This document shows, piece after piece, positions 25,331-44,813 of a DNA stretch of 64,000 bases. The position numbers and the translations under genes were made by a program. The stretch is from an uncultured Planctomycetaceae bacterium (lineage in GTDB: Bacteria > Planctomycetota > Planctomycetia > Planctomycetales > Planctomycetaceae). The stretch spans positions 160,001 to 224,000 of the forward strand of contig CAWFGE010000007.1 of NCBI GenBank assembly GCA_963815195.1. The letters are read 5' to 3'. Each line of letters starts with the position of its first letter. The first letter of the stretch is position 1. Below the pieces are notes generated by a model. The model was not told the origin of the DNA and did not search any database. It saw only the letters and a list, made by a program, of their open reading frames with translations.

Positions 25331-25912
25331 GTGAGAATCGGCATGTTTGTAGGTGCATATTGGGGAAAGCGAAAGGAAACACGCGACGAATGCGCAAAGC
25401 GCATCGCTGATGTCTTGCAACGACTTGGACAATGTCATCCAGCACTGAGGACTTGGTATCTGAAGGGCCGTAGTAAAAGTGAGGCGCTAAAGAACCCAAT
25501 TGAGTTATCGGGAGATTTTCTTGGCCGGATTCTGAGGACGAACAATCGCGACACCGACGGTTCAGCGATAGTGGAACTTGGTTTCAATATCGGTGTTTGG
25601 AATGGAAACAACAACCTACCTGTATCGTTTCGTGCGACGTGTGGAGGGTACTCGGATTTCGTTAGAAACTCCGTGGTGCTACAGCTGCCATCGAACTGCG
25701 ACGATTGCGACTTTTTGTCCTCTAAACGAGTCCGAACAATGTTGCTCGATTTCGTTGAAACGTTTGACCCAGACAAGGCAGTGGTAACAAGTAATGAATA
25801 CCTTGACCGTGCTGGTGTTAACCACCCGTGTGATGCTGGATGGTTAGTGTATGAGCGAAGCCGCGGCGTCGATCAGATCATTGAACAGGGGACAGTCGGG
25901 CAGGTCGATTGA
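25331..25912 (+). CDS. Imm52-like immunity protein
   Basis: GAYWGKRKETRDECAKRI...L..L...HP...W and ELGFNIGVWNG motifs; starts 4 bp after the toxin stop (GTG 25331, or ATG 25343); lower GC. Confidence 0.8.
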   Translation: MRIGMFVGAYWGKRKETRDECAKRIADVLQRLGQCHPALRTWYLKGRSKSEALKNPIELSGDFLGRILRTNNRDTDGSAIVELGFNIGVWNGNNNLPVSFRATCGGYSDFVRNSVVLQLPSNCDDCDFLSSKRVRTMLLDFVETFDPDKAVVTSNEYLDRAGVNHPCDAGWLVYERSRGVDQIIEQGTVGQVD

Positions 25913-26734
25913 ATGCCGGCGGTTCGGCCCTGGTGACCACTTGGGGCGATTTGAACGGCTCCGTCACCGCCGGGGACGCGGCGTTGGTGTTTTCCGGCGG
26001 GGAATCCACCGATTTCGACATCGATGCCGGGAGCGATGCCCTCCTGCAAACGGCGGGATTCACCATCACCAACGTGCACGCGGGCGAAGACGCCCTCATC
26101 ATCGCGGGCGGGGTTTTGGCCGGCAGCGTGTACACCGACCGGGACGCGGCGGTGTTGACGTATGATTTTTCCACGATCCTGGTCGATGCCGACCGGTATG
26201 CGTCCGTCTCGATTTTCAGCAAGTATCAGGGCACGGTGTCTGCCGGGGCGGTTGCCTTCGTGTTCACGGGCGGAGATTTTCACGGGGAGGTGACGGCCGG
26301 GGGCGATGCGGTGCTCGCGTCGTTCGGGAACGTCAAGGGACACCTCGCGGCCGGTGGCTATGCGTTTCTGGCGTCGTGGGCCGATGTGGATAACATGGTC
26401 GTGGAGGGTCCGGCCGGGGTGGGCGTTTGGGCCGTCGGCCATATCGAGGGGCCGGCGTCTTCCCGGGTAACCTCCACCGGGGGAGAAGTCGATATCCTGG
26501 CTTTGGGCAACGTCTCGGCCCGTGTGGAAGCCGCCGCCGATGCCACGATTCTCAGCGAAGGCGATGTGAATGCTTCACTCGACGCCGGCAAAGATGCCTT
26601 TGTCTTAGCCTATGGAGACGTCACAGGCAATTACTCCGCCGACCGCGATGCGTCCGTGATCACCTACGGCAACTTTAACGCCGGTCTGCACGCGGGCCGG
26701 GACATCGGCCGCCGGCCGTTCGGCGGGAATGCGC
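25909..26734 (+). pseudogene. Second toxin-stalk fragment, truncated at both ends, no toxin tip
   Basis: About 19-aa AGxDAxV..xGd repeats; contains copy 2 of the 472-bp repeat; homology stops at a REP-like element. Confidence 0.8.
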
Positions 26735-26771
26735 CCCTCACCCTAACCCTCTCCCCCGAGGGGAGAGGGGA
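26734..26771. repeat. CCCCTCACCCTAACCCTCTCCC-type REP-like hairpin
   Basis: CCCCTCACCCTAACCCTCTCCCCCGAGGGGAGAGGGGA with stem CCCTCTCCCC/GGGGAGAGGG. Confidence 0.8.
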
Positions 26772-26787
26772 CAAATCCACGGACGAT

Positions 26788-29535
26788 CTACTTCGCGTCG
26801 TCCTGCTTCGCGTCGTCCTTCATCATCTTGAAGTCGCCGGCGACGACGGTGAAGAGCTGTTTGGGTGCGATGTGCTGTTTGAGGGCTTCGTGCACCTCGT
26901 CCGTCGCGACTTTGGGAATCGCGGATTCCAACTCTTGGTAATACTCCATCGTGCGGCCGATGTGCAGGTTTTGCGAGAGGAGGCGGGCCAGGCCACTGTC
27001 GCTGCTGCGGGCAACGGTTTGCTTTTGCAGGTAGCCGGTCTTGGCCTCGTTGAGTTCCGCTTCGGTCACGCCGTCTTTGAGGAGTTTTTCCAATTCCTCG
27101 GAGATGACTTTGCGGACTTTGGGGATGTTGTCCGGATTGGAGATTGCGTAGATATAAAACGAGGACCGCTCGTCCAGCGCGGAGGCATTAAAACCGCAGC
27201 CCACGCCGTAGGACAGGCCTTCCTTCTGACGGACGCGGTTTCCGAGCCGCGACGAAAGCGACCCGCCGCCGAAAATGAAATCGCCCAGTACGAGCGCGGG
27301 ATAATCGGAGGCGGTGTCCTTCATGGGGAAGGTCATTGCGGAGAAATAGACGGCGTTTTTCTTGTCCGGGGTGTTGATGTCTTCAAACCCGCCGGGCTTT
27401 TGGGAGGCTTTGTCCGCGAGGCGTTCGTAGGGCTGTTTGGCTTTCCAACCGGCGAGGACCTTATCGCAGAGGGGCACGATCTCGTCCGGATCGAAATCGC
27501 CGACGATCGCCAGCTCCGCGTGCTCGGGCGTCAAATAGTTCTCGAAGAGTTTGACCATTTGATCGCGGGTGACATCTTTGGTCCGCTGGATCTCTTCTTC
27601 GATCGAAGGCACGTACCGCGGATCGCCCTTGGGCCATGCCGACATGTGCTGCCGGACCAAGGTGGTCGCCAGGGACTGGGGCTCGACAAGTTCCTTTTCC
27701 CAGCCGGCGAGTTGAGCCCGCTGGATGATGCCCAACTCCTCTTCCGGGAACGTCGGTTTGCGGAGGACTTCTTGGAGGAGTTTGAGCACGGCGGGGAGGT
27801 TTTCCCGCTTGGTTTCGAGGGAGAAGGTGGCCACGCCGGGCGAGCCGCTCGCCGCGAGTTGGGCCTTCTCCTTGTCCAAAGCGTCCTGGAGTTCCTGGCG
27901 GGTGAAGTTCATGGTGCCGCGAGTCATCATGCTCGGCAACAGCTCGGTCGCCTTTTCCAATCCCGCCAAACTCTCGGCGGTCCCGTAGCGGAGCGTGAGC
28001 CGGAGGTTGACGGCTTCGCCGCGGGTCTTTTTGGGCAATAACGCGGCCTCCGTGCCGCATTTCAACATGACCCGCGTCGTGCGGGCCTGGATGTTTTTGG
28101 GCGACACGTCGAACGCTTCGCCTTGGGCGATTTGCTCCCGGCCTTCGTAGTTGCCGATCATCTCGGCCAGGTTGGGGATTTCCGGGATGACGGTTTTCTC
28201 AGGCTGTTTGGTGGGCAGATACAAACCCACGGTGCGGTTGCTGCGGGTGAGGTATTCTTTGGCCGCTTTGTCGACGTCCTCGGCCGTGACTTTTTCCAAG
28301 CGGTCGCGGTAGACGAAGTACAACCGCCAATCGCCCATCGAGGCCCATTCGCTGAGCTCGATGGCGATGCGGTCGGACTTGGACGCCGCGAGTTCGCGGT
28401 ATTTCAAGAGCTTCAGTTTGATGCGGTCCACTTCTTCCTGCTTGACGCCCTTTTCCACGACCTCTTCGATCGTGTCGAGCATGGTGCCGAGCACCAGGTC
28501 GGGTTCGTTGCCTTCGGAGACCTCGGCCATGATCCGCAGGATGCCCGGATCATGCCAGGCGAAGGCCGCCCCGGAGACGCTCGCGGCTTTTTTGGTTTCC
28601 ACGAGCGACTTGTACAACCGCCCGGACGGGGAAGAGGTCAAGATGCCTTCCAGCACGTCCATCGCGGGATATTCGGGATGGGGACCGGCGGGGATGTGGT
28701 ACAGCACGCCGACCAAAGGCACTTCGCCGACCCGCCGGAGCGTGACGATTTTCTCGCCGTCTTGCGGGGGCTCTTCGGTGTAGGTCTGGCCGAGCTCGCG
28801 CTTCGGTTTGGGCAGCGTCCCGAAATATTTGCCCGCGAGCGAGAGCGCGGCATCGGGATCGAAATTTCCGGCGATGACCAGCATGGCGTTATCGGGCTGG
28901 TAGTATTTTTTGTAGAACTCTTTGAGCTTGGAGACCGGCACGCGTTCGATGTCGGCCTTGTTGCCGATGGTCGATTGCCCGTAGTTGTGCCATTGGAACG
29001 CGGCCGACATCATCCGCTGGCCGAGGATCGACGAAGGGCTGTTTTCGCCGCGCTCGAACTCGTTCCGCACGACCGTCATTTCCGAGGCGAGGTCTTCGCC
29101 TTTGATGTAGCTGTTGATCATGCGGTCGGCTTCGAGCTTGAGGGCGAACTCCAGGTTCTCGTCGGACGCGGGCAGGGTTTCGTAATAGTTCGTGCGATCG
29201 ACCCAGGTCGTGCCGTTGAACCGCGCCCCGCGTTCGGTGAGCAGCTTGGGAATCTTCTCGTGCGTGGGCGTGCCTTTGAAGACCATGTGCTCCAAAAGGT
29301 GAGCCATGCCCGCTTCGCCGTAGCCTTCGTGCCGGGATCCGACGAAAATGGTGAGGTTCACCGTGACGACGGGCTTGGAGTCGTCCGGGAACAACAAGAG
29401 GCGGAATCCGTTTTCCAATTTGTATTCCGTGATCCCTTCGATCGAGGTCACCTTTTCGGCGGTCGGTTCTTCGGCGGACAAGACGGGGTTCGACATACAC
29501 ATCACCAAGGCGGTAAAGACGAAAACTCGCAGCAT
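26788..29535 (-). CDS. Secreted M16 family zinc peptidase (pitrilysin/PqqL-like)
   Basis: Signal peptide; GMAHLLEHMVFKG inverted zincin motif; second half with VRQKEGLSYG. Confidence 0.95.
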   Translation of the reverse strand: MLRVFVFTALVMCMSNPVLSAEEPTAEKVTSIEGITEYKLENGFRLLLFPDDSKPVVTVNLTIFVGSRHEGYGEAGMAHLLEHMVFKGTPTHEKIPKLLTERGARFNGTTWVDRTNYYETLPASDENLEFALKLEADRMINSYIKGEDLASEMTVVRNEFERGENSPSSILGQRMMSAAFQWHNYGQSTIGNKADIERVPVSKLKEFYKKYYQPDNAMLVIAGNFDPDAALSLAGKYFGTLPKPKRELGQTYTEEPPQDGEKIVTLRRVGEVPLVGVLYHIPAGPHPEYPAMDVLEGILTSSPSGRLYKSLVETKKAASVSGAAFAWHDPGILRIMAEVSEGNEPDLVLGTMLDTIEEVVEKGVKQEEVDRIKLKLLKYRELAASKSDRIAIELSEWASMGDWRLYFVYRDRLEKVTAEDVDKAAKEYLTRSNRTVGLYLPTKQPEKTVIPEIPNLAEMIGNYEGREQIAQGEAFDVSPKNIQARTTRVMLKCGTEAALLPKKTRGEAVNLRLTLRYGTAESLAGLEKATELLPSMMTRGTMNFTRQELQDALDKEKAQLAASGSPGVATFSLETKRENLPAVLKLLQEVLRKPTFPEEELGIIQRAQLAGWEKELVEPQSLATTLVRQHMSAWPKGDPRYVPSIEEEIQRTKDVTRDQMVKLFENYLTPEHAELAIVGDFDPDEIVPLCDKVLAGWKAKQPYERLADKASQKPGGFEDINTPDKKNAVYFSAMTFPMKDTASDYPALVLGDFIFGGGSLSSRLGNRVRQKEGLSYGVGCGFNASALDERSSFYIYAISNPDNIPKVRKVISEELEKLLKDGVTEAELNEAKTGYLQKQTVARSSDSGLARLLSQNLHIGRTMEYYQELESAIPKVATDEVHEALKQHIAPKQLFTVVAGDFKMMKDDAKQDDAK

Positions 29536-29736
29536 CGGTCGCTCCTAATTCCGTTGGAAGGAGACCCGTGAATGGGGCGACGATTCGCTTCCCATTCGCG
29601 TGGACGATCGCCGGCCGGATTGACTCGACATCAAAGGCTGGGCGATTTGGGCAAATACATTGCCGAGATCCTAGCAACCGCGCCCGCCGAATGGAACCGT
29701 GCCTTCGGTGGATCCGTCTCGGCGATCCGGCCGGCG

Positions 29737-30551
29737 TCAACTTTTGGCCAAGGCGATGATGAACATCGCCATCAGGACCAAGAATCCCAGGATCAGCACG
29801 GCATATCCGAGAACGAGGCCGGTGAGCGCCATGCCTTCGCCGCTGTAGGCCTGCCGGTTGGCTTTGATCTCCCGCAGCGCCAAATGCCCGAAGATGACGG
29901 CCAGGAGACTCCCCACGCCCAAGAGGACGTTGGTTCCCAAAATGCCCAGGATCAAACTGGCCGAGGCCAACGGCGGCGTGGGCCGCTCTCCGGCGGGCCG
30001 CCGCGGGAGAACTTCGTCGCGACCGATGATGATCGGCTCGGGTTCGGGGTCGAACGCGGGCGCGGAACGCTGGGCGCTTGAACCGCGGACGCCGCTCCGC
30101 GGAAGCCCGGGATGCGGTCGGCTTCCACCCAATCGGGGAAGGTCTCGTTCCAGACCAGCGTGTCCAAGGGCAACCGCCCGTTCTGAAAATACTGCCGCAA
30201 CTGGGCCTCCGTCACCGGCCCGCGGGTTTCCTCCGCTCCCTGGAGGCAGAAGTGCCATTCCAACTCGTCGTCCGCGGACACCACTTCCAGGTCGTCGAGC
30301 AACTGGACTTCGATGATCTCCGGCTCGGCGGGCGCCGGCACCGCAGAAGGCTGCTCTTTTCTTGCCGGCTGCGGCGGTTTGGGCGGCGGAAACAGCCCTT
30401 CGACTTTGCGGGCCGGCTGCCAGCGCTCTTTGTCGGTCGAGACCTGGTGCGTCTTTTTCAGGTGCCCCCGCTCGGCCTTGGATTTCAAGTCCTCGAACGA
30501 AAACGGCCCATGGACCTTGCCCTGTGACCGAATGTAATAGGTGTCGCTCAT
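29737..30551 (-). CDS. Two GYF_2 (DUF4339) domains plus a DUF4190 membrane domain, one frameshift near 30075
   Basis: YYIRSQGKVHGPFS and WHF...RGPVT..L....G.L...TLVW in one frame; LASASLILGI...AVIFGHLALREI...GEGMALTGLVLG in the next. Confidence 0.8.
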
Positions 30552-30671
30552 CGCGGTAAGTCCCGGCCCTCCGATTGGGATTGGTCGTGTCAGATAAGGC
30601 TCATCAAAGGTTAATCGAGGAACAAGCGTCGCATTCCAGTCCCATTCCATTAGCCGCAAGTTCGCGAATTC

Positions 30672-30756
30672 ATTAGCCGCAGGGCGCTAGCCCCGGTTCA
30701 TTGAGACACCCGGACGAATGAACCGAATGAACCGGGGCTAGCGCCCTGCGGCTAAT
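30672..30756. repeat. REP-like doublet with perfect 31-bp inverted arms
   Basis: 30672-30702 is the exact reverse complement of 30726-30756 (AATGAACCGGGGCTAGCGCCCTGCGGCTAAT). Confidence 0.92.
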
Positions 30757-30900
30757 CAATTTGACGAACCTTTCGGATCATCAGCCGGAACGCGCTGGCG
30801 GACAACCGAACGCTCGCTTTTCCAAATCTTCATAGTAATCCGATGCAGAACCGGAATCGAGAGGCCGGGGGGAGTTTTTTGAGAATGCCGCGATCGAGGC

Positions 30901-32697
30901 TCAATGCTGTTCCTGAAGTTTCCACGCCACGTACAACCGGTGGAACGTCGTGCCTTCGCGTTCGAGATCTCGGAACCGGCCGGTCTCCACAATCCGGCCG
31001 CGGTCGAGCACCAGAATCTGATCGGCCCGCTCGAGCGTGGCCGGGCGATGCGTGACCAAGAGCGTCGTGCACTCCGGCCGGTCTTTTGACAGACGCTCCC
31101 AGAGAGCCGCTTCGGTCTCGGCGTCCAGACTGGCTGTGCAATCGTCCAGAAGCAACACCCGCGGGCGGCCGGCCAAAGCGCGGGCCAAGGCGACCCGCTG
31201 TTTCTGCCCGCCGGACAACCGCACGCCCCGCGAACCGACAACGGTCCCGAGCCCCTTCGGCCAACCGGCGAAATCACTTTGAAGCTGGGCCGTCTCGATC
31301 GCGGCCCCAATCGCCTCGTCCGTCACGTCCTTCCGCCCGAAGCGGATGTTTTCTTCCAGCGTCCCCGAAAGCAAATGCGGCTCCTGCGGCACGTAGCCCA
31401 ACCGCCTGCGCAGAAGATCGGCCGGCCAGTCGCGGGCATCCCGGCCGCCGATCGACACCCGGCCGGCCGCGGGATCCATCAGGCGTGGCGCGAGGTTCAA
31501 GAGTGTGCTTTTGCCGGCACCGACTTCCCCGGCCATCGCGGTGAGCGTGCCCGGCTCGGCGGCGAAGTTGATGTCCTCAATCGCCCATCGTTCGCTGCCC
31601 GGATAGCGGTAACTCACGCGTTCAAACTGCACCAGAAGCGGCTGCGGAAACTCGCCGGCGGCGTTTTCCTCGTCCGGCAGAGCCGAGGCAATGTGCCGGG
31701 CCGAGGGCGGCGGGGATTCGGGGATCAGAACCTCCGGCGGAAACCGCTCGACTTCCGCCACGCGGTCGATGCTGACCGCGCACAATTTCCCGCGCACGAA
31801 GAACTGCCCGATGTCGAACATCGGCCACACGAGCATCAAAACGTAAGTATCGAACGCGATCAAATCCCCCAGCGTCACATCGCCCGCGATCACCATCATC
31901 CCGCCCGCCAGCAGCACCGCCACGATCGCGAGCTGCCAGATGTTGCCGTAGAGCGAATCAATGACGGTCTGCCAGCGGACGGCTTTGATTTCCGCCCGCC
32001 GCTGCTCTTCGATCGTGTGCTCGACGAGGCGCTGCTGGTTCTCTTCCACCGCGAAGGCTTTAATCACGCGAATCCCGCTGAAGCAGCTTTCCAGCGAATC
32101 GTTGAGTTCGGAAATCGATTGCTGCACGGCTTCGTAGCGCTGATGCAGCCGATCCCCGGTCACCACGAACAAGGCGACCAGAATGGGTAAAGGCGTGGCG
32201 GTATAAAACGTGAGCGCCGGGTTGATGACCAGCATCATCGCGACGCCGAACAGAATCAGCAGCGCCGCCTCGACGACGCGAAACACCCCCGAGCACAAGA
32301 ACCAGGAAATTTTCTCAGTCACATCGTCGTTCAGCCGGGTGACCACGTCCCCGGTGCGGAACTTGGAAAAAAACAAAGGCCCGAGCCGCAGCACATATTC
32401 AAATGCGCGCAGGCGGACGCCAAATTCAAACCGCATATTCAAAAGGGCCCGGCGGTATTGCATCACCGCGTAGATAAAGAAGTGCAGAATCCCCACGCCC
32501 ATTAAAAACCCGACCTGCCGCCACAGAAAGCCCGGCGTGAGCGACTCCTGAATCCCATCGATAATCCGCTTGAGCAAAAACGGATAGGCGACGAGGACCG
32601 CGGCATTCGCGACCGAGAGCCCGAGCAACAACGGCACCTCCCCGCGGTAAACCGCCCAATGCTCCAGAATCCACCGCAACCGTTCGCGGAACGTCAA
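30901..32697 (-). CDS. ABC exporter, fused permease and ATPase
   Basis: Six-TM domain, GEVGAGKS, LSGGQKQR, LLLDD; the true start may be ATG 32719 with a 1-nt indel. Confidence 0.93.
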   Translation of the reverse strand: MTFRERLRWILEHWAVYRGEVPLLLGLSVANAAVLVAYPFLLKRIIDGIQESLTPGFLWRQVGFLMGVGILHFFIYAVMQYRRALLNMRFEFGVRLRAFEYVLRLGPLFFSKFRTGDVVTRLNDDVTEKISWFLCSGVFRVVEAALLILFGVAMMLVINPALTFYTATPLPILVALFVVTGDRLHQRYEAVQQSISELNDSLESCFSGIRVIKAFAVEENQQRLVEHTIEEQRRAEIKAVRWQTVIDSLYGNIWQLAIVAVLLAGGMMVIAGDVTLGDLIAFDTYVLMLVWPMFDIGQFFVRGKLCAVSIDRVAEVERFPPEVLIPESPPPSARHIASALPDEENAAGEFPQPLLVQFERVSYRYPGSERWAIEDINFAAEPGTLTAMAGEVGAGKSTLLNLAPRLMDPAAGRVSIGGRDARDWPADLLRRRLGYVPQEPHLLSGTLEENIRFGRKDVTDEAIGAAIETAQLQSDFAGWPKGLGTVVGSRGVRLSGGQKQRVALARALAGRPRVLLLDDCTASLDAETEAALWERLSKDRPECTTLLVTHRPATLERADQILVLDRGRIVETGRFRDLEREGTTFHRLYVAWKLQEQH

Positions 32698-32750
32698 AGT
32701 CTGCCGCGGAGGTTGTCATGGTCTTTAACCCTTCGATGGTCTTTAACCCT

Positions 32751-34653
32751 TCAATTGACGAAGCGGTACACTCGCAGGCGGTGCTTCCAGAGAATCTGCG
32801 GCGTGCCCACGGGCGTCAACTCGATCGCGTGGGACTCTCCCGCCTCGTCCGTCGCGCGGAGCGTCGGAGCCCGCGTGTCCCGGTCGTTCCAATCCACGAT
32901 GAGTTCCACCCCGCGCGGCTTCCCGCTTTCGGCCGCGCCCTTCGTGAGCCGCTCGTCCCACCACGATTCCACTTCGAGCGATTCCGCTCCGGGCCACAGG
33001 GACGTCAGCACGTACCGCAGCATCAAGGGACTCCGGTCCGGTGCCACGATGATCCAGCGATCGACCGGCGATTGCCCGGCGAGTTCGCTGCGGAGCGCGG
33101 CGAGGGCCCGATCGTCCGGCGTGGATTCGCGGACGCCGAAGGACCCGATCAAGCCATGCGCCACGACCAACAGCGCGATCGCCACATCAAGAAAAATCCG
33201 CTGGCGAAGGTCGTCGGCTTTGAGCGTCCGCCACAGCAGCCAACCCATCCCCCCGCCGGCCAAAACCAGGAACAACAGCGTCCACAACAGCGACAAGACG
33301 GGATGGATCTCCGGCTGCGAAAACGCGCGGAGCAGCGGACCCGCCGAGGACCAAAGCGCCGGCGACTTTCATGCCCGCCATCCCGAAGCCGACCTCCACG
33401 GGCGCGGCGATCAGCACGAAAACCGTGATGCCGAGGGCCGTCAACACGCTGGCATAACCCAGCCGCCGGATGCCGATCTGCTCGATGGCGAGCGCCGCCA
33501 GCATCGTGGCCGGCACGAGACAGAAGCCTCGCCAGACCACGGTGAAGGCGTCCGAACGGTGCGGCCCCACCCGCAGGCTCAGCCACACGATCCCCGCGCA
33601 CGCGCCCCAGCCCAGCATCAGCACCAACGACCGCCGTTGCGATTTCGCCGCCGGCTGCCTCAACAGCCAAATCCCGGCCCCGGCGCCCAGAAACATCAAT
33701 CCGCAAATCGCTCCCGTCATCTGCGACAGGTCCCACAAAATCTCCCAGCCCCAGCCCGCATCCGGCGCGGCGGGCACCGGCAGCGAAGCCGATCCGACAA
33801 ACCAACTGCTCAAGAACGGCCAGCCGTGCCGGGCGAACATCCAGACTTCCCACCACCCGCCGACGACGAACCCGATCAGACACAAAATGCCCAGCGACCC
33901 GAGCGCGGGCCGGCTTTTCCAGGACTTGCGGGCCGCGGCGCTTTCGACTTTGAGCGAAGGTTTGAGCTCCGGCCGTTGCACCAACACATACAGAAGCAAG
34001 ATCGCAACAAGCACCACGGCCACCGGACCGCCCGCCAAGAGGCACAAGCCCCACGCGACGCCCGCCCCGCCCAGCGGCCAGGAAGAGGGACGCTTCGATT
34101 CCTGGCAGTGCACCGCGAAGCCCCAGCACGCCGCCACCGCAAACGCCAGCGTCAGCGACACGGGAGCCGGCGTCTGCGCGCCCTGCAGAATCGGCCCGCC
34201 GAACGCCGTCAGCAAGGTCGCCCACCACGCGAACTGCGGGCCGCGGAGCCGATCGCAAAACCCGAACATCAATCCGATCAAGACCGCCGTCGCCAGGTAC
34301 GACGTCAGCACCAACGCCAAGGGATGATCCGTCCCCGTCAACGACATCACCCCCGCCCGCAGCCAACTCGACAAAGGCGGCTGCCACTTGAGAGGCACCT
34401 CGACCGCCCCGGTGATCGTCGAAGGATCGAGCCAGCCCGTCGCCGAGTCCGCCGTCGTCATCGCGACCGCTTTCAGTCCCCACAGCGCATCGAGTGGCGT
34501 GAGCGTGCGGTTCATCAACACATAAAGCGGAGGCAAAAGCGCCAGAAGCGCAATCAAAGGCGACATCGCCTCCGCCCGGTTCAACAGCGGAAACAGCGAC
34601 TTCTTAGGCGATACAGACAACTCCAAAAGTTGCCGATCCTCAACAAACGCCAA
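32751..34653 (-). CDS. ArnT/GT39-like polytopic glycosyltransferase, frameshift near 33300-33340
   Basis: KWQPPLSSWL motif and many TMs in 33187-34653; continuation in 32751-33296. Confidence 0.7.
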
Positions 34654-34677
34654 TCTCGATCTCCCTCTGAGGTTTAT

Positions 34678-35359
34678 TTTTTAACGCAAAGGTGCAAAGA
34701 GGGGCAAAGGATCGCAAAGAGTCGAATCTTGCAAGAGCACGCCTTGAATCTTTTCATGTCCCTTAACCAAAGCGGTGACGGTTTTATGCAATCCATAGGG
34801 GTGTACGATCGCCTCATTTTTCATTTGCATCGAATAACTCAGACGTCCACTGGATTGGTCCATTCAATAGGCCGCTTTCTAGCCAACCACGAACTGTTTC
34901 AAAGGCTGCTTTGCGCATCACCACGTATTTCCGCGAGAAGGGGTAATTTTGATCGTAGAATGCCTCGAAGCACCCAATCGCATGACGATCTCCCAAACTC
35001 GTCAGTTGCTCGCCAACAAGTGAGCCGGGATAGTACATCAGGACGCATTCGGTCTCGTCCAGGAAGGCCGTGATCGTCTCAATCTCATCTGCCTGCCGCG
35101 TGTCAATCATTTCCTCAAGGGACACAACCACTGCTTCGACGCGGTTCCTTTCTCGGCGCAGCCTGTCTGCGGAATTGCACAAGATTCGGATCGAATCCTC
35201 GACCGATCTTGGAGAGATTCTGTAGAAGCCATCGCTGGCCTGGAAAGAGATGATGTGCGTGCGCATTTCAGCCGAAAAAAAGTGGACATCCCATGTGCGA
35301 CGTGGTCAATAAGAATCCTTTGCGTTCCTTTGCCCCTCTTTGCTCCTTTGCGTTAAAAA
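34678..35359. mobile_element. 682-bp cassette bounded by 42-bp terminal inverted repeats
   Basis: 34678-34719 matches the reverse complement of 35318-35359 at 40/42; arms are built of GCAAAG units at 9-bp period; no transposase. Confidence 0.7.
34814..35266 (-). CDS. Orphan Imm1-like immunity protein (hypothetical)
   Basis: 150-aa lower-GC ORF; C-terminus SLGD...F......YP....V....A..TV..W..SG.L...IQW resembles the Imm1 family. Confidence 0.55.
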   Translation of the reverse strand: MRTHIISFQASDGFYRISPRSVEDSIRILCNSADRLRRERNRVEAVVVSLEEMIDTRQADEIETITAFLDETECVLMYYPGSLVGEQLTSLGDRHAIGCFEAFYDQNYPFSRKYVVMRKAAFETVRGWLESGLLNGPIQWTSELFDANEK

Positions 35360-35363
35360 CCAA

Positions 35364-36334
35364 TCATTTCGATGAGCTTTTCTTCCACGCGATCACGTCA
35401 TCCAAAATTTGCCCCAAGGTCATGCTCGGTTTGCTGCCTAGAGTTTGCTCGAGCCGGTCCAAACACGGCACCCGGCGGCGGACGTCTTCGAAATCCTCGC
35501 CGTAGGCTTTGTTGTACGGCAGATATTCGATTTTGAGCTCCGGGTTCACGCGGGCGATGACTTCCTCGGCCAGCCGGCGAATCGTCACCGCCTGGTCGCT
35601 GCCGATGTTATACACTTGCCCGTTCGCGGCCGGGGTGTCCATCAGGCGGACCACGCAATCGACCACTTCGCGGACGTGGGCAAAGCAGCGGACCTGCTCT
35701 CCATCATCATAAACCACCACGGGGCCGCCTGCGAGGGCTTGATCGACGAACCGCGGAATGACCATCCCATAATGCCCGACCTGCCGAGGTCCCACCACGT
35801 TGAAAAACCGCCCGACCACCGCCTGGACGCCGAACTTCCGATGATAAGCGAGCACAAAAACTCATCGATGGCCTTCGAGCACCCGTAAGCCCACCGCGGC
35901 CGGGAGGTCGGTCCCAGGTGCAGATCGTCCTCTTCGGTCCACTCTTCCTTGGGGTTCTTGCCGTAAACTTCGCTGGTGGACGCGAGGAACACCCGCTGCT
36001 TGCCCTGGGCCGCCATCTGCAGGAGCATCTCGGTGGGATAGATGTTCGTCTCGATCGTCCGTACCGGATCGTCCGCCACCAGCTTCACGCCCACCGCGGC
36101 GGCGAGATGATAGACCACATCGATCCCCGGCATCACCAGCCCCAAAGCCACGTTGTCGGTAATCGACCCCGATTGAAACGACAGCCGGGGATGCGATTGG
36201 GCCTCCGCCAAATTCTCCCGCCGGCCCGTGGAGAGATCATCGAGCACGACAACGTCATGCCCCATCTCCAACAGCCGCTCGACAAGATGGCTCCCAATAA
36301 ACCCCGCCCCCCCGGTCACCAAACACCGCGCCAT
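35364..36334 (-). CDS. NAD-dependent nucleotide-sugar epimerase/dehydratase, frameshift near 35857
   Basis: [24 protein letters not shown], then [10 protein letters not shown] in the shifted frame. Confidence 0.92.
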
Positions 36335-36490
36335 AAAACACCATCCCAAACTCAGCACCCCAAAAAAAACGCACGCCAGCAAACGCGCTCGAGAGTAGTG
36401 AATCCGCAAACGAAACAACAGGCCCGCGGGTCGTGAATCGCACACTCGCGAGGGGTGGAATCTAGCGAGCAGCGAAACGAAAAATTGTTC

Positions 36491-37348
36491 TCAGAAAGTG
36501 AGCAACAGTCGGTCGGTTACCACTTCACTTTCCAGGGTTCGTCCGTTCATTTGAAAGCGTTTGAGCATGGATCGGCCGCAATTCAGGAAAACCTCTCTCT
36601 CAAAAAGTCCGTCGGGAATGGGAATTTCGCAGAGGTGGTCTCCCGATTTTTTGGTGCCATCAATGCTCAGAGCCACCATCACGCCGCGATCCTTGCACTC
36701 CGCGATGACCTCTAGGAGGTGCTGCAATTGGAACGATTGGGCACCGTAGAGGATCCCCTGGCTCTGGGAATACGGCGGATCGCAATAGACCACGTCGCCC
36801 GCTTCCGCCATGCCCATGGCCTCGTCGTAACTAAAGAGCTGAAATTCCGTTCCTTGAGTTCGTCGCGACCATTCGTCAACTCGGTTGCTGAAGGACTTCG
36901 GGGGAATTGGCTTGTGCGGACCGCAGGGGGTGGACATGTATCCGTCCGCCTTGCGGAATCGAACCACCCCTCCGTAACAAGACCGGCACAAAAAGAGCAA
37001 ATCGGCACCATTGGGGTTCGCATTGTAGGCCGCTTTGATGCGTTCGTATTCTTCGACTTTGTCGCCACTCGCCACGGCATTCCATCGTTTCGCATACCAC
37101 TCCTTAAGCAAATCGGAGTCGCGGTGTAACGTTTGCCAGATTTCGACCAAAGGCGGAAACGCGTCGGAGGCCAACGCCCGCTTGGGAGCCAACGTCGCAA
37201 GAACGCCCCCGCTGCCCAGGAAGGGTTCAAAATAGCGGCCGAAGTTTTGAGGAAAAAAAGACGCGATTTCGTGTGCAAACCTCTGTTTGTTGCCGATCCA
37301 TTTCAGCAACTGGAGTTTAAATGGCTTCACGCACCAGGCCATCGGCAT
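36491..37348 (-). CDS. Dam-like (D12 class) DNA adenine methyltransferase
   Basis: LLKWIGNK, YFEPFLGSG and YCDPPY in alpha-class order; start uncertain (37399, 37348 or 37342). Confidence 0.92.
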   Translation of the reverse strand: MPMAWCVKPFKLQLLKWIGNKQRFAHEIASFFPQNFGRYFEPFLGSGGVLATLAPKRALASDAFPPLVEIWQTLHRDSDLLKEWYAKRWNAVASGDKVEEYERIKAAYNANPNGADLLFLCRSCYGGVVRFRKADGYMSTPCGPHKPIPPKSFSNRVDEWSRRTQGTEFQLFSYDEAMGMAEAGDVVYCDPPYSQSQGILYGAQSFQLQHLLEVIAECKDRGVMVALSIDGTKKSGDHLCEIPIPDGLFEREVFLNCGRSMLKRFQMNGRTLESEVVTDRLLLTF

Positions 37349-37415
37349 CAAAGAGTTCGAGTTGCATTGGTTTCCCGTCAAGTGGATAAATTCTTTCATC
37401 CGAACGTCCACACGA

Positions 37416-37438
37416 CAATATCCGAATTTGGGATATTG
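37416..37438. promoter_or_regulatory. Putative operator of the HTH controller
   Basis: CAATATCC-N7-GGATATTG, 24 bp upstream of the HTH start, between the divergent genes. Confidence 0.65.
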
Positions 37439-37462
37439 GTCAACCACCCGCACACTCCGGCA

Positions 37463-37711
37463 ATGGAAAAAAGCATTTTCACATCCCGAAGCGAGAAATT
37501 ACAATCCCTCCTCCGTGAGATTCGGGTAGGAGCGGGGTTGCGCCAATTTGATCTCGCGGAGCGATTAGGGCAGCCCCAGTCATTCGTGAGCAAATACGAA
37601 CTCGGCGAACGACGTCTCGATCTCCCGGAACTCCAACAGATTTGCGAAGCTTGCGGTACCTCCCTCGTCGAGTTTGTCCGGCGGTACGAGGAGGCGACCC
37701 ATGCAGCCTGA
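37463..37711 (+). CDS. XRE-family HTH regulator (R-M controller-like)
   Basis: LREIRVGAGLRQFDLAERLGQPQSFVSKYELGERRLD; overlaps the next gene. Confidence 0.9.
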   Translation: MEKSIFTSRSEKLQSLLREIRVGAGLRQFDLAERLGQPQSFVSKYELGERRLDLPELQQICEACGTSLVEFVRRYEEATHAA

Positions 37712-38579
37712 CACGAGGTTTCTCAAACAGCCAAGATACTTTTGGGCCAATGTTCGCAGCATCAGCCAAAAGTTTGGATACACCGAACGGGCGAAAAAGG
37801 GAGAGCCGAAAACGAACGGGCACATCAAGGTGCCTTCGATACAGCAAATGGCTGAAGTGATGACCACGCTCGGACTGGGCCGCGAGCATCTTGTTAGCAA
37901 AGGAAAATCCACAGAATTGGCAAAACAACTCCTTGCGTATTTTCAGCATCGAGCCGAAGCCTTGAACAACTACGTTCAGCCGCGGTTGATGGATAAAGAC
38001 AGAGCTTCGAAGGTTTTTAACAATTTGAGGAGGCGATTGAAACCGTCTTGTCCGATTCCCATGAACAAACAGAAAGGCGAGAAGAAGGCTGAGGCGTTCT
38101 TCACTGGTATTATCAACATGCTTATCGAGTCGAACGCCAAGGGGATGCCCTGCGACTACAATCCCAGGGAATTGACGACGGTGACTCTCAACGGAGTACC
38201 GCTGCGAACGCTCGCCCGTTGGGTGGACGGAGCATTTCCCAGTCCGGTGAATCCGATCGCGGTTTGGGAAATAAAGGAATACTATTACACCACAACGTTT
38301 GGCAGCCGCGTTGCGGACGGCGTTTATGAAACTCTTCTTGATGGAATGGAACTAGAGGAGCTTCGAGAACACGAGCAAATCGACGTCAAACATTATCTCA
38401 TGGTGGATGATCGATATACTTGGTGGGATTGCGGGCGATCCTATTTGTGCCGAATTATTGACATGCTTCACATGGGATATGTTGATGAGGTGCTTTTTGG
38501 GTATGAGGTTGTCGAACGCTTGCCGAAGATCGCGAAGGAATGGGTTTCCTTGGCGAAGAAGCGCAGCGACCTGGTGTAG
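37701..38579 (+). CDS. Putative type II restriction endonuclease (PD-(D/E)XK)
   Basis: VDGAFP...WEIKEY catalytic-like motif; linked to the MTase and HTH genes; lower GC. Confidence 0.72.
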   Translation: MQPDTRFLKQPRYFWANVRSISQKFGYTERAKKGEPKTNGHIKVPSIQQMAEVMTTLGLGREHLVSKGKSTELAKQLLAYFQHRAEALNNYVQPRLMDKDRASKVFNNLRRRLKPSCPIPMNKQKGEKKAEAFFTGIINMLIESNAKGMPCDYNPRELTTVTLNGVPLRTLARWVDGAFPSPVNPIAVWEIKEYYYTTTFGSRVADGVYETLLDGMELEELREHEQIDVKHYLMVDDRYTWWDCGRSYLCRIIDMLHMGYVDEVLFGYEVVERLPKIAKEWVSLAKKRSDLV

Positions 38580-38728
38580 TGTGTGATCAATGGTGGATTT
38601 CACCTCCCGGTGGGAAGGTGAAACAGCGCTGACAACGAATTCTTTCACACCGTCGTCGTTCCCCCTGTTTAGCCGGAAGAACCATTTTCAGGCCCTTTGC
38701 TGCGAGTAGACACGCGAAAATCCGGGCG

Positions 38729-40426
38729 TTAGCGCGACGGCTTCTCGGCCACGGCGGGCGCAGGCAAGGGCGGCCGGGCAGTGGGGGTTTGGGGGTTCGG
38801 TTCGGCCGGCTTGGTTGCGGGGGCGTCGGCTGTCTCCGGACGGGCCCAAGCTCGCTGGAGGAACGCGGCCGCCTCCGATTCCGGCGACGCGGTTTTGATC
38901 GGCTGGAGCACTTCGAGCGCTTTGGGCACTGCTCGAGTTGGGCGAGGCAACGGGCCAAGAGCATCCGGCAATGATCGGTGTGCCGGCCGTCCAAGAACTG
39001 TTCCGCCTTGGCGAGGTACGTCTCAAACTGCCGGGCGGCTCCCGGGACGTTGTCCTTTTCCATGTGGCAAACGCCCGCCCAAAACAGGGCGTCCTCGGCG
39101 GCCTCGGCATACATCGTCCGCACCGCCGGCGGCAACGGGGCGGCGGCCGGAATGTTTTTGTAGTCCAACTGGACCCGCAAATACCCCTGGACCGCCTCGT
39201 CCCGCCGGCCCATCAGTTGTTGGGTCCGGGTTTTGAGTTCGAGTTGAGTCGGCACCTGAAACGGCGCCCAACGCTCTTGGAGCCGGCCCGGGTCGAGGTC
39301 GTCAAATCCCTTCAGGCGGTTTTCAGGATGCGGCCAGACGCCGATGCTCTCCCGCGTCCACTGCGGACCGACGACCGCAGCCACCCGGTTCACGACGGAC
39401 GTCGTTTCCCGTGAAGCGGCCATCAGATTCTCGGAAATCACCAGGGAGGATTTCCCAGTCAAAAAGCGTTCGAGCCGAGCCATCCGCGGCGCCCACAGCT
39501 CGGAATTGCCGATGATCTCGATCCGCACTTTCTGAAACAGCGGCGGGAACTTTCGAGCGTCTTCACCCGCGAGAGCGTCCCAGACGTTGGCTTGGGAGAG
39601 ATCGGCAATTGTCGCGGGGATCGTTCTGTCCGGGGCCGCTTGACGGTTTTGCGGAACCGGAGTGGACCGCAGCGGATCGAACAGACGGACGTCCTCATTG
39701 ATGATCGCCCCCACAAACCAAGGCGACGACTCCCCGGCCGATTGCGGGCGGACGATCACCGCATCGAGCTTGAGACTGCCTGAGCAGCCCGGCGAAGATC
39801 CAGGCGCGGTCCGCCGCCGTGCCTTCGCCGAAGACGAGCATTTCATAAGGCGTCAGCGGCAGGGCGTTTTCGTCGGCGACGAGCTGCACGTTCCGCGTCA
39901 CATAATCGAACAAAACGCCCGCCCGCTCCAAATCATTGTCGAGACCCTGCGTCACATCATCGACGATCGCCTTCATCAAGAGGCTCGTGCGAATATGCCC
40001 CACGTCCCGCTGCGTGAATTGATCGCCCTCGGCTTCTTTCAAGGCCTCGGCGGACAGGCGGGTCTCGAGGTATTTTCTCGCCTCCTCGGACAGCCGCGGA
40101 CTGAATCGAGCGTTCTTGGAGCCGTTCTCGGATGTTTGAACCTGGGCCAGCCGCCATTGGTTGAGCACGCTCGCAGCGCGTTCCGGCGGGGAGTCGATCC
40201 CCAACCGCTCGGGCTGCATCATGTTCATGGCGACATCGAGCAAATCCAATCCGCTCGCTGGAGCCCCAGACCCGTCGCCTCCATTGGACGACGCGGTTTT
40301 GGAATCGGAGGAATTGCACCCATAAAACCCGGCGAGCACGACGGCCAAAAGGATCAAAAGAAACACGGACACCCGCATCCAACGCATCGGCGACGCGGGA
40401 CGTTCTGGAGAAGACTCATCAAACAT
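38729..40426 (-). CDS. Hypothetical lipoprotein with transglutaminase-like and TPR regions, frameshifts near 39770 and 38930
   Basis: FYGC lipobox-like; LFDYVTRN...TPYEMLVFGEGTAADRAW; TPR-like ALFWAGVCH; three consecutive frames. Confidence 0.65.
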
Positions 40427-40562
40427 TGGGGAGACACCTGAGATAAAGATATGATTTCGGAAAACGGATCGCCATTTTAAGTATACCGCGATCGTCATGG
40501 CGGTGAAGATGGGGGATCGTGATTGATCAAACGCCATCCTCGATCTTCCATTTTCCATCATC

Positions 40563-41402
40563 TCACGTCAGCCAGGAATTGACCAGGGTTCGGAGGGCGA
40601 TCAGTTGCTCGAGCAGCCGGGGAACTTCGTCCAGGCGGACCATGTTGGGGCCGTCGCTTTTGGCTTCGTCGGGATTGGGATGCGTCTCGAAGAACACCGC
40701 ATCGCTGCCCGCGGCAACCGCGGCCCGCGCCAGAATCGGCACCATCTCCCGCTGCCCGCCCGTGGTGCTGCCGCCGGGCAGTTGCACGCTGTGCGTGGCA
40801 TCGAACACCACCGGCACGCCCAAGGACTTCATAATCGGAATCGCCCGCATGTCGTTCACCAGCCGCCCGTAGCCAAATGTCGTCCCCCGTTCGGTCAAAA
40901 GGATGTTCGGATTGCCGGCCTCTTCGCATTTGCGGACGACATGCACCATGTCCTCCGGCGCGACGAACTGCGGCTTCTTCACGTTGACCACGCCTTGCCG
41001 TTTCGCGGTGGCCTCGGCGGCGGCTTGGATCAAATCCGTCTGCCGGGCCAGAAACGCCGGGATTTGCAAAATGTCGCAAACCTCCGCCGCGGGTTCGCAC
41101 TGGTGCGGCTCGTGTACGTCGGTCGTCACGGCGAGGCCCGTCGCTTCGCGGGCTTTGGCGAGAATCTCCAAGCCACGCTCCAAACCCGGCCCGCGAAAAC
41201 TTTTGAGGCTCGTGCGGTTGGCTTTGTCAAAACTCGATTTGAACACCAACGAGACCCCCGCCTCGGCCGCGATGTCCGCCAACCGCTGGGAGACCTCGAG
41301 AATGAGCGATTCGCTCTCAATCACACAAGGCCCGGCAATCACCAACAACGGCCGGCCCGTCCCGCAAGCCATCCCCCGCACGCTCACCGGATTGTTCGGC
41401 AT
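40563..41402 (-). CDS. kdsA: 3-deoxy-8-phosphooctulonate (KDO8P) synthase
   Basis: [45 protein letters not shown]. Confidence 0.97.
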
Positions 41403-41524
41403 GTCACACTCCCTTTCCACATCGCTTCAAAAGCTCCAAATCGAACCGCGTTCCGTACGAGGATAGAGGATAGAGAATCGAGGATAGAAAAACGATAGCG
41501 AACCGCCTCGCGTTCTTCCTGTCC

Positions 41525-42406
41525 TCAGGCCAAAGGCGGAACGAGAAGTTGGAAACCCTGCGGCTGCACCTGGATGACGGCCGGCGTAAACCCGGCGGGG
41601 TCGCCGTCGACTTGCGCGGGGACTTCCACATCGCATTCCACACGAATCCGCTTCGCCCGCAGGCGTTGAACCAGGTCGCCCGTTTCGTGCCGGCCGCAGA
41701 CGACGCCCGCAAAATGCCGGGCGAACTCGAGCCGGGATTTCGGCGGAAACAACCGCACATCGAGCAGCCCGTCGGTGGGATCCGCGGAGCGGGCGATCGG
41801 CAGGCGAAATCCATAGACCGGCATGTTGACGACAAACCCTAAGGACGCCAACCGCGGCTCGGGGTCGTCATCAATATAAAACCGCATCTCGGGGTAGTTA
41901 TAATTCCAGAACGCCTGCCACAGCGGGCGGGCGTAGGACCAATGGCGGATGTGGCCTTGGCGGGCGCTGTCCACGAGCCGCACCACCTCCGCATCGAAGC
42001 CGAAGCCGGCCATCAGCGTAAACCGCCGCTCGCCCATGGTGCACAAGTCGAAGCTCTTCGCCTGCCCGGCGGCGATCATGTCGGCCACGAACTGCCCGGA
42101 CCGGCGAATGCCCAGATACCTGGCGAGCAGGTTCTCGGTCCCCAAAGGCAAAACCGCGATGGGATACCGGGGGCAGCGGTTGATCAAATCCCCGACCGTG
42201 CCATCGCCTCCCGCCGCGACGATGCAGCGGGGCGGGTCGTCGGGATCGAGCACCCGCAGCCGTTCGTCGCAGCGCTCGCGTTTGGAAAACAACATCGGCC
42301 GCAGCCCGTGCCGTTTCAGCCCGGCAATGAGGTCCAAAAGAATCCTCGCGCGCGGCCCCGACCCCGAACGCGGATTCCGCTGAATGGCCACCCAGGGTCG
42401 CTTCAT
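41525..42406 (-). CDS. Diacylglycerol/lipid kinase family protein
   Basis: NPRSG, AGGDGT, LPLGTEN, GFDA, QVDGD; ATGA overlap with the HAD gene. Confidence 0.92.
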   Translation of the reverse strand: MKRPWVAIQRNPRSGSGPRARILLDLIAGLKRHGLRPMLFSKRERCDERLRVLDPDDPPRCIVAAGGDGTVGDLINRCPRYPIAVLPLGTENLLARYLGIRRSGQFVADMIAAGQAKSFDLCTMGERRFTLMAGFGFDAEVVRLVDSARQGHIRHWSYARPLWQAFWNYNYPEMRFYIDDDPEPRLASLGFVVNMPVYGFRLPIARSADPTDGLLDVRLFPPKSRLEFARHFAGVVCGRHETGDLVQRLRAKRIRVECDVEVPAQVDGDPAGFTPAVIQVQPQGFQLLVPPLA

Positions 42407-43101
42407 GGCAAGAGGTCGAGGAGTTCCGTCAGAGTGAAAATGGTGGGAATGGTCTCGTCTTTGTTGATGATATTCGATTGGAGCCGATCGAGATACGCCG
42501 CGCGGATTCCCGCTTCGCCCGCCCCCCGAATGTCGTTGATCCAATCGTCGCCTACCATGAGGATGTCACGCTTCTCGAATCGCGACAAATCGAGCAAGGC
42601 GTCGTAAAAAGCCGGCGATGGTTTTGACGAACCGACTTCCGAGGAAATCACGCGCGTGGAGATATTTTTGAGCTCCGGATGGCCGTCGCAGACGGCGTGC
42701 AATCGCCGATCGAAATTGGACGCGATCGCCGTGTCGTATCCCCTCGCCGCAAGTTCACTCAACGTCTCGGCGACATCCGGGAAACACCGCCACGAATCCG
42801 CCTTCCCGAAGTGGGCGAACAATTCCTCGAAGCAGGCCTCGAAGTTTTCAACATCATGAAACACCGAGCGCACGATAAACGACCATCGACGTCGCTCGTT
42901 ATTTTCGTCGGTCGTGCCGGCTGACCATTCTTCCGTCGTTGCCAAACGAAATACGTCGCGGAACCGCGTGCGAATCTCCTCTTCGGAAAGTTCCGAGCCG
43001 AATTTTCTCCCCACGCGCGCATACACCTCGGCCACGGGCGGCTCGGGATAAACCAGCGTGCCCACGGCATCAAACGCGACGCATTGAATGTGAAACAGCA
43101 T
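42403..43101 (-). CDS. HAD-IA family hydrolase
   Basis: FDAVGTL, SNFD, KP, MVGDDWINDI. Confidence 0.92.
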   Translation of the reverse strand: MLFHIQCVAFDAVGTLVYPEPPVAEVYARVGRKFGSELSEEEIRTRFRDVFRLATTEEWSAGTTDENNERRRWSFIVRSVFHDVENFEACFEELFAHFGKADSWRCFPDVAETLSELAARGYDTAIASNFDRRLHAVCDGHPELKNISTRVISSEVGSSKPSPAFYDALLDLSRFEKRDILMVGDDWINDIRGAGEAGIRAAYLDRLQSNIINKDETIPTIFTLTELLDLLP

Positions 43102-43298
43102 AGCGGGCGGCGTTAGAAAATCGACCGAATCAGAACAGAAGGCACACCCATTGTCCGTTCATTAGCGACAAAACCTGTGCACAGATTCATTTTGCAGCAG
43201 GATTTTGTGCCCCATGATTCTGCGATTTCGATTGTCGATTGGGTGATTACCAACTTCAGTACTTCCAAAAAAGCTCGAGAAAATGTTTTCGCCGTCAA

Positions 43299-43368
43299 GA
43301 GCCGCGCACGAAGTAAGCGGTTTTGAGGGATTCAGAGAACGCAAGACCGCTTACTTCGTGCGCGGCTC
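43299..43368. repeat. REP-like doublet, perfect 22-bp arms
   Basis: GAGCCGCGCACGAAGTAAGCGG at 43299-43320 and its reverse complement at 43347-43368. Confidence 0.9.
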
Positions 43369-43439
43369 AGGCCTTTTTTTGGCATTACTGAAATTGTTGA
43401 ACTTACTTCGATCTTTCATAATTCAACCGCCGCCGCGCA

Positions 43440-44369
43440 TCAATCGCCAGCCGATTTGGGGTTCTTGACGGTCTCGGCTTCGATGAAGATCTGCTTGACC
43501 TCCGGGTGCCTTTCCTGGATCTGTTTTTCCATGCGGTCCACGGCGGCTTCGATGTCGTCGGACGACAGCGAATCTTTGAATTGAATGTCCAGATTCAAAA
43601 GCACCTGATCGGGCCCCATGTGCAACGTCAGGGTGCGTCCGATGCGTTCCACGCCAGGATCGCTTTGGGCGAGTTTGCGGATGTCGGCCACGGTTTCGGG
43701 GGCGGCACTTTCGCCGATCAACAGCCCCCGCGTCTCATAAATCAGAATCGCCGAGACCCCCGCGAGGAGCAAACCGATCAAAATCGAGGCCACCGCATCC
43801 AAGCGAGGCATCTGCAAAAGTTCGCCCAGATAGATTCCCAAAAACGCAAACAACAGCCCCAACAGCGCGGCGGAGTCCTCAAACAGCACGACAAAGGTCG
43901 TCGGATCCTTGCTGGCGCGGATTTCCTGCCAGAAGGATTCGTCCCCTTTGACCTGGAGAAACGTGCGAAGTGCAAACACCCAGGTGACGCCCTCGAACAC
44001 GGCCGAGATGCCGATGACGAGATAGTTGGTGAGCGGGCTGACGACTTCCGGAGGCGTCTTCAAGTGCAAAATGCCTTCGTAAGTGGAGATGCCTCCGCCG
44101 ACGCCGAAGATCATGATCCCGACGATCAAGCTCCAGAAATACACTTCCGATCCGTAGCCGAAGGGGTGCTTTTCATTGGGCGGACGCTTGCTGAGCCGCA
44201 TCCCCAGGAGCAAGAGCAGACCATCGCCCGTGTCCACAGTGGAATGAATTCCCTCCGAGAGCATCGCCGAACTCCCGGTGATCGCGGCGGCCACGAATTT
44301 GGTGACGGCGATGGCGAGATTTCCAATAATCGCCGCCACGACGGTCAAGGTCGACGAAGTCTGGGCCAC
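43440..44369 (-). CDS. Cation diffusion facilitator family transporter
   Basis: SEGIHSTVD, HPFGYG, FEDSAA, C-terminal dimerisation domain. Confidence 0.93.
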   Translation of the reverse strand: MAQTSSTLTVVAAIIGNLAIAVTKFVAAAITGSSAMLSEGIHSTVDTGDGLLLLLGMRLSKRPPNEKHPFGYGSEVYFWSLIVGIMIFGVGGGISTYEGILHLKTPPEVVSPLTNYLVIGISAVFEGVTWVFALRTFLQVKGDESFWQEIRASKDPTTFVVLFEDSAALLGLLFAFLGIYLGELLQMPRLDAVASILIGLLLAGVSAILIYETRGLLIGESAAPETVADIRKLAQSDPGVERIGRTLTLHMGPDQVLLNLDIQFKDSLSSDDIEAAVDRMEKQIQERHPEVKQIFIEAETVKNPKSAGD

Positions 44370-44813
44370 GGATTGATCCTTTCATTGTTTACTCCCATTA
44401 GGGCAACGTGGCTCGCGGTTTGATTTGGTTATAGAGAGTTGGAACTGGAATGCGAGAGCAATTCCGCCGGCTTGATGGTCGGCGGAACGCGATAAGTTTC
44501 TGGCCGAGAACGATTCCTTCTGGATTGAGGAACTTGTGGATCGGACGGCTTTCCCTCCGACTGGAGAAAACAGGGAAAAAGTGCGGTTCCCGGTGGGGGG
44601 AACGGTTGGGGAAGGAAGTCGGGGAACGTCTGATTTCTCTCGGATGGTCCGGTTCTGCCGCCGATTTTTTGTTTTCAAGGCCGGCCGAGCGTGTTATGTT
44701 AGAATTTGTGAAAATTTTTCCGTGGTATCCTTGCGATTCATTTCACATCATGTCAAAACATATCAGCCACGTCTTTCGAACATCAACAAACCTCCACTGT
44801 TGATTCGCGTTCT

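Follow-up and report, generated by a model that had tools for sequence, protein, structure and literature searches.

An Imm1/DddI-type immunity gene between inverted phased-repeat arms in a planctomycete operon: a possible gene-exchange slot linked to GxxExxY genes

Integron gene cassettes, which go with an integrase and attC sites, are single promoter-poor ORFs that lie in one orientation and borrow their transcription, and many of their genes are orphans. MITEs, like TIMEs and other composite non-autonomous transposons, have terminal inverted repeats, lack a transposase and can enclose passenger DNA. In the REPIN–RAYT system, as set out by Bertels and Rainey (2011, PMC3116915), repeats form inward doublets with variable, poorly conserved spacers and no target duplication. 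Tandem repeats of another kind, classes 1 and 2 of Geobacter metallireducens, are listed by Aklujkar et al. (2009, PMC2700814) as ‘predicted global regulator binding sites’. Here we compare with these systems a repeat-bounded unit that lies within an operon of an uncultured Planctomycetaceae bacterium. On our best reading, it is a non-autonomous representative of a family in which pairs of phased-repeat arms face inward, a family tied to GxxExxY genes (PD-(D/E)XK-fold, PF13366).

The window, that is, the whole 64,000-nt stretch of DNA that was analysed, contains the unit as a segment of 682 bp whose inverted arms are 598 nt apart. The unit and its two host genes comprise the following features.

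32751..34653, minus strand: host gene on the downstream side, encoding a membrane glycosyltransferase of PMT_2 (GT-C) type, two ORFs here
34678..34719, plus strand: left arm, a T-run, AAC and then four GCAAAG words spaced 8, 10 and 10 nt; member of the dispersed arm family
34720..34813, no strand: spacer of 94 nt, from cargo stop codon to arm
34814..35266, minus strand: cargo gene, 150-aa divergent Imm1/DddI-type immunity protein
35267..35317, no strand: leader of 51 nt, from arm to cargo ATG
35318..35359, minus strand: right arm, complementary to the left arm at 40/42
35364..36334, minus strand: host gene on the upstream side, encoding an NAD-dependent epimerase/dehydratase and interrupted near 35854

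Much of this layout had been noted in a preliminary description made from the letters of the window, and most of it stands. The arms (34678–34719 and 35318–35359) do pair at 40 of 42 positions; the unit begins 4 nt past the epimerase TGA and ends 24 nt ahead of the downstream gene's TTG; and the single cargo ORF, on the minus strand, is co-oriented with both operon neighbours. One detail needed correction: GCAAAG was said to recur every 9 bp, but the words start at arm positions 9, 17, 27 and 37, giving spacings of 8, 10 and 10. The unit is transposase-free, as claimed, since no frame within it exceeds 163 codons. Nor is there a clear target duplication, with no direct repeats seen outside the arms of this unit or of 20 further pairs (21 pairs inspected). 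As RNA, the arms base-pair with a z-score of −4.3 (versus 20 shuffles). GC content inside the unit is 50.5%, compared to 59.7% for the genome, and no match to a sigma-70-type promoter was found in window positions 34500–36600. Both unit junctions are covered without differences by contigs of run X1, which may be the source sample, and an X3 contig from a separate study spans the cargo, right arm and epimerase. The unit is genuine sequence and not an assembly artefact.

The glycosyltransferase gene itself has no Pfam, NCBIfam or PDB match; 6 of 8 aligned homologues match PMT_2, and hence ‘glycosyltransferase’ (GT-C type) is a fair name for it. Both host genes are interrupted in the window, the epimerase at 35854 and the glycosyltransferase at about 33300–33400. 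Near 35854 the X1 contig has one base changed and one extra base, and in two congeners the glycosyltransferase is a single ORF of 654 and 636 aa. Because X1 differs at the epimerase break and congeners have both genes whole, these splits are likely assembly errors. Two other gene pairs lie nearby. About 9 kb from the unit, at 24670–25912, an ORF with a Tox-REase-5 domain is followed by Imm52, a toxin–immunity pair. Just upstream of the operon, at 36491–38579, a D12-class adenine methyltransferase gene stands with a gene for a low-GC DUF7690/DUF7687 protein, probably as a restriction–modification pair.

How does the unit compare with the described systems? Like REPIN–RAYT systems and TIRtrons, the latter as portrayed in PMC3733652, it is an intergenic doublet of inward-facing repeats able to form a hairpin, and a putative cognate enzyme gene is flanked by repeats of the same type. 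Of the three tests that define REPIN–RAYT systems, over-representation of inward doublets gives a positive result, and short palindromic REP arms and a RAYT flanked by the same repeat are both absent. The arms here are instead phased tandem words of 6–8 nt with no internal palindrome, the flanked gene encodes a PD-(D/E)XK-fold GxxExxY protein rather than an HUH transposase, and the spacers, gene-sized at most, are exchanged at one site. These data bear on the idea of a REPIN-like doublet that one of the genome's HUH (RAYT-type) transposases moves and whose spacer carries a gene by chance. The inward doublets, poorly conserved spacers and lack of target duplication are indeed REPIN traits (PMC3116915), and the genome has six Y1_Tnp matches. 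However, CGCAAAG arms are missing within 10 kb of all six, the repeats consist of phased tandem words instead of short palindromes, and it is a GxxExxY gene that such arms are seen to enclose, all of which makes this idea improbable.

MITEs and TIMEs resemble the unit in having terminal inverted repeats, lacking a transposase and being able to enclose passenger DNA. Unlike them, the arm pairs here show no target duplication (21 pairs) and no conserved body (43 fillers unrelated), and no IS with ends matching the unit arms was identified. In sum, the layout is REPIN–RAYT-like but departs from that system in two of its three defining tests, and it does not conform to MITEs in the tests applied. 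With integron cassettes the unit shares a single promoter-poor ORF, little flanking DNA, one orientation and presumably borrowed transcription; it differs in that the slots here are dispersed, two-armed and limited to one ORF each. No integron-integrase-like long ORF was recognised among the ORFs of window positions 25000–45000. The Geobacter sites likewise come in pairs between genes, one site on each strand and separated by a variable gap, with three or four tandem words per site, but their words are others, their reading is regulatory, and neither GxxExxY nor gene cargo is connected with them in the portion of PMC2700814 compared.

The preliminary description had proposed a search for the arm consensus. 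A profile from 44 arms of this genome yielded 65 matches, compared to 1 in the reversed genome, mostly as inward pairs around short unrelated fillers. Neighbouring arms within 300 bp face inward in 18 of 19 cases, and those at 301–1200 bp in 2 of 3; random placement would be expected to give ∼0.14 such neighbours. For 28 hand-listed inward pairs, the inside length (unit minus 96 nt) ranges from 40 to 586 nt, with a median of 75.5, and the window unit is the longest. Its 94-nt spacer is about as long as the filler typical of units that have no gene (median 75.5 nt). Most arm pairs enclose only short filler or other REP-type repeats, and among 43 fillers (28 of this genome, 15 of two congeners) homology is confined to places where another repeat family is nested.

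Each of the unit's two arms finds its best match in the genome in its partner, with a score of 32 compared to at most 23 with any other paired arm. Because they share a variant unique in the genome, the window unit appears to be one piece, formed or imported as such. That the arms of a pair evolve together in general was rejected, as within-pair versus between-pair likeness gave a P value of 0.11 with the window unit and 0.42 without it. The exact window arm variant occurs in none of the GTDB genomes, and the arms have no Rfam match. A paired-arm pattern of 564–594 bp was found at two loci in GTDB genomes, both gene-less; these (L086, L087) are nested CGCAAAG-arm palindromes of ∼590 bp in a MAG titled Parachlamydiaceae. 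A pattern of 434–464 bp was absent from 301 family genomes, although it is strict and its absence says little, and no convincing gene was seen in 14 further inward pairs from other genera.

Some arm loci of this genome (G000) have arrangements of their own. At C13:137438–137956 (L142), a 23S rRNA IVP four-helix-bundle gene (PF05635) lies inside GCCACAAAG-type arms, with a second PF05635 gene right beside it. At C12:332375 (L143), a lone arm is followed by ∼650 nt of lower-GC DNA that carries an orphan membrane-protein-like ORF, and the closing arm is absent. At C7:293506–293934 (L144), the closing arm is duplicated along with 12 nt of flank, and a short gene-end-like fragment lies between the copies.

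We then considered the host junction in relatives, using 16 loci around glycosyltransferase homologues. Nine of these keep the epimerase directly upstream, and in all nine both the unit and the cargo are absent. It follows that the unit is a recent, lineage-specific addition to an old epimerase–glycosyltransferase junction. In the congener G002 this junction holds a different short repeat, and in G001 and G003 the adjacency of the two genes is lost, with no CGCAAAG arm behind the epimerase. The preliminary description had suggested aligning the operon to find the empty site; this succeeded in so far as the unit is missing from 9/9 relatives, but an empty CGCAAAG arm pair at the junction was not found in the relatives compared. 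In G001, where the epimerase is elsewhere, a degenerate inward pair of arm-like words precedes the glycosyltransferase start (L030).

The contents of the slots can be compared more directly at other loci. At five other sites in the genus, what lies in one arm-bounded slot varies between genomes, being one gene, another gene or short filler, in agreement with the earlier proposal of repeat-bounded slots with variable contents. In the C17 GxxExxY locus, the slot ahead of the gene has a 294-nt filler here and a 100-aa gene in G001, between flanks that are 86–92% alike; in G002 collapsed arms are all that the block consists of, and GxxExxY is absent. Seven further homologues of the G001 100-aa cargo were found, at 55–84%, and a search for the context of this family in 401 phylum genomes, a set without a positive control, returned none. 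L067 in G001 and L068 in G002 represent one junction, with flanks 79% alike, at which units of 454 and 562 bp have unrelated contents. A second arm type, with 129 matches in the genome compared to 6 in the control, bounds the site at C6:154930–155794, where a 259-aa DUF1963 gene is present here and the arm pair is empty in G001. This gene exactly separates the left arm from the filler that is seen in the empty form, such that the short filler of G001 recurs here directly past the gene's stop codon. At C13:110749–111556 there is a gene here (split in the assembly), ∼100 nt of other filler in the arm pairs of G001 and G002, and a different REP in G003. C18 has, between GxxExxY and the closing arm, a 127-aa ORF and an additional arm, both of which G001 lacks. 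Two of the five variable slots adjoin GxxExxY genes. DUF1963 as an immunity family was considered and found to be unsupported by the accessible part of PMC4275035.

In 7 of 8 units with gene-sized cargo, the cargo is co-oriented with its neighbours on either side; the eighth unit lies between convergent genes. Among these eight cargo ORFs, three of which (in L067, L068 and L079) are hand-picked candidates without confirmed homologues, the window cargo is the only recognisable immunity protein. No homologues of the 143-aa cargo of G002 were found, and Atlas gave no usable match for the L079 ORF. As judged from alleles of the same sites, arms outlast their contents, and inner DNA is gained, lost or exchanged at the inner arm edges. 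The outcome is a unique short filler in most arm pairs and a tightly fitting foreign ORF in a few.

One could explain such turnover without any dedicated enzyme, if the arms were protein-binding or RNA-structure repeats residing in tolerant gaps that are subject to illegitimate recombination. Consistent with this, other repeat families are often enclosed by arms, G002 carries yet another repeat at the epimerase–glycosyltransferase junction, and intergenic gaps turn over fast, 59 of 115 sampled G002 junctions being non-syntenic here. Moreover, paired tandem-repeat sites at variable distance are read as regulator binding sites in PMC2700814. What this explanation does not predict is that ORFs occupy most of the slot, that the old filler begins exactly where the C6 gene stops, that the extra ORF of C18 arrives together with an extra arm, or that both window arms have a private variant in common; two-sided arms at 22 of 34 GxxExxY loci also argue against it, subject to a post hoc word list with no control. 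We therefore regard it as rather unlikely. A distinct notion, that the arms are rearrangement hot spots, was rejected, because only ∼7 of 20 arm units of G001 and G002 lie at synteny breaks, compared to 59 of 115 background junctions.

The cargo of the window unit can be assigned with the help of its distant relatives. It has a single close cluster, P0002, which matches it at 77% over 99% of its length, and neither of the two has a direct match to PF14430. All 12 distant homologues match Imm1 (PF14430), 9 of them above the cut-off, and the top Atlas clusters for the cargo are Imm1 at 0.92, with recognition below the Atlas threshold. For the predicted model (pLDDT 86.8), Foldseek ranks 1–3 are chains of 6u08 (DddI; E 1.4e-4), and comparison with DddI (PDB 6U08) gives a TM of 0.61 by query and 0.73 by target, at 14% identity. 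One caveat here is that Imm1 homologues are included in the model's alignment, and hence the fold match is not fully independent. These data uphold the earlier view of the cargo as immunity-like and its suggested comparison with Imm1.

DddI blocks the DNA deaminase DddA through DNA mimicry (PMC10442228). The cargo is similar to DddI/Imm1 in its predicted fold, in its acidity (24 D+E, 17 K+R) and in having a homologue, in G075, directly behind a HINT/DddA-like toxin gene, there without arms. It is dissimilar in that it has no PF14430 match of its own, is only 14% identical to DddI, and has no toxin gene adjacent to it or found elsewhere in the genome. For a DddA-like toxin, neither PF14428 (positive control G075, 1.3e-17) nor tblastn gave a match in this genome, which is 94.6% complete, and searches of G000–G003 with PF14430 and PF14428 produced no matches. 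Given that no DddA-like toxin was found in the genome, the cargo is taken to be an orphan DddI-type immunity gene. Its codon use is foreign, with a GC3 of 0.60 compared to 0.74–0.83 in neighbouring genes. Homologues of the cargo are present in 4 of 300 family genomes; in all four, the surroundings of the homologue lack arms of each of the four types looked for. No DNA around close cargo homologues was found in metagenome contigs, viral contigs, phages or plasmids. In G099 (C220, L065), two co-oriented genes enclose an orphan Imm1-like gene, upstream of which stands a short tandem repeat of a different type.

The connection between arms and GxxExxY genes had been put forward in the preliminary description. 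In this genome there are five GxxExxY genes, each of which adjoins phased arms of some type, and arms of the unit's own CGCAAAG type flank one of them (C17:18804–19157), as they do in the congener G001 (L066) and in G040. Across 34 GxxExxY loci, arms were seen on both sides in 22, but this count is not a test, as the word list was chosen after viewing the loci and lacks a control. G002 has many arms and a single GxxExxY match, which is without the CGCAAAG arm type. The function of PF13366 is given as unknown in PMC3424549.

Did the unit itself once hold a GxxExxY gene? The preliminary description suggested as much, seeing in the peptides MSLNQSG...SIGVYDRL and DVVN a weak resemblance to its termini, in which case the immunity gene would have replaced the middle of a GxxExxY gene whose ends remain inside the arms. 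That GxxExxY is flanked by such arms at C17, in G001 and in G040 is in line with this scenario, and in one shuffle test the 94-nt spacer resembled GxxExxY 5′ ends at the DNA level (P = 0.01). The peptides do exist in a plus-strand frame, but they do not score as remnants. Against a profile of 33 GxxExxY proteins, the unit scores −1.7 bits (E 0.91), nhmmer returned no match, and the other three shuffle tests gave P values of 0.06 and 0.21 (protein) and 0.74 (DNA). Furthermore, the unit's best DNA match to GxxExxY is a gene with a different arm type. On the profile score, the nhmmer result and the shuffle tests, remnants of GxxExxY in the unit are not supported, and we give little credence to replacement in place. 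As no GxxExxY gene or remnant was found in it, the only form left for the unit is one that bears cargo and is non-autonomous.

For this non-autonomous arm pair, we lean towards an explanation in which GxxExxY-linked uptake and loss of cargo take place between the arms. The unit would have come or formed as one piece, judging by its private arm variant. A GxxExxY protein, as a putative nuclease acting in trans, would bind the phased words and cut at the arm's inner edge, and repair after the cut would take in or drop DNA. Loss of GxxExxY between two same-direction arms could generate the arm–cargo–arm arrangement, which the C18 and G001 layouts would allow. Promoter-less cargo might then be retained when it runs with the host operon, and the cargo retained here may protect the cell from a neighbour's DNA deaminase toxin.

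A broader form of this explanation, which is possible but which we offer tentatively, is that GxxExxY and the phased arms constitute a dispersed, integrase-free gene-capture system. Uptake in such a system would be near ORF-exact, useless captures would shrink to fillers, and useful ones, orphan immunity genes for instance, would be kept under the host operon promoter. If this holds, each arm pair is a one-gene cassette slot, and its filler is a record of past capture.

Our data point to the unit type as a small gene-capture or gene-exchange slot. It is apparently undescribed, in that no description of cargo exchange between such arms, or of a GxxExxY-plus-arms element, was found in the literature searched, the coverage of which excludes subscription journals. 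New here are an immunity cargo that is defined and, from congeners, alleles in which one and the same slot is full or empty; these alleles make the capture idea directly testable. If the idea is correct, there would be a role for PF13366, a large nuclease-fold family, and for intergenic repeats that have so far been read as regulator sites. It would also offer one way for bacteria to acquire orphan immunity genes and have them expressed although these lack a promoter.
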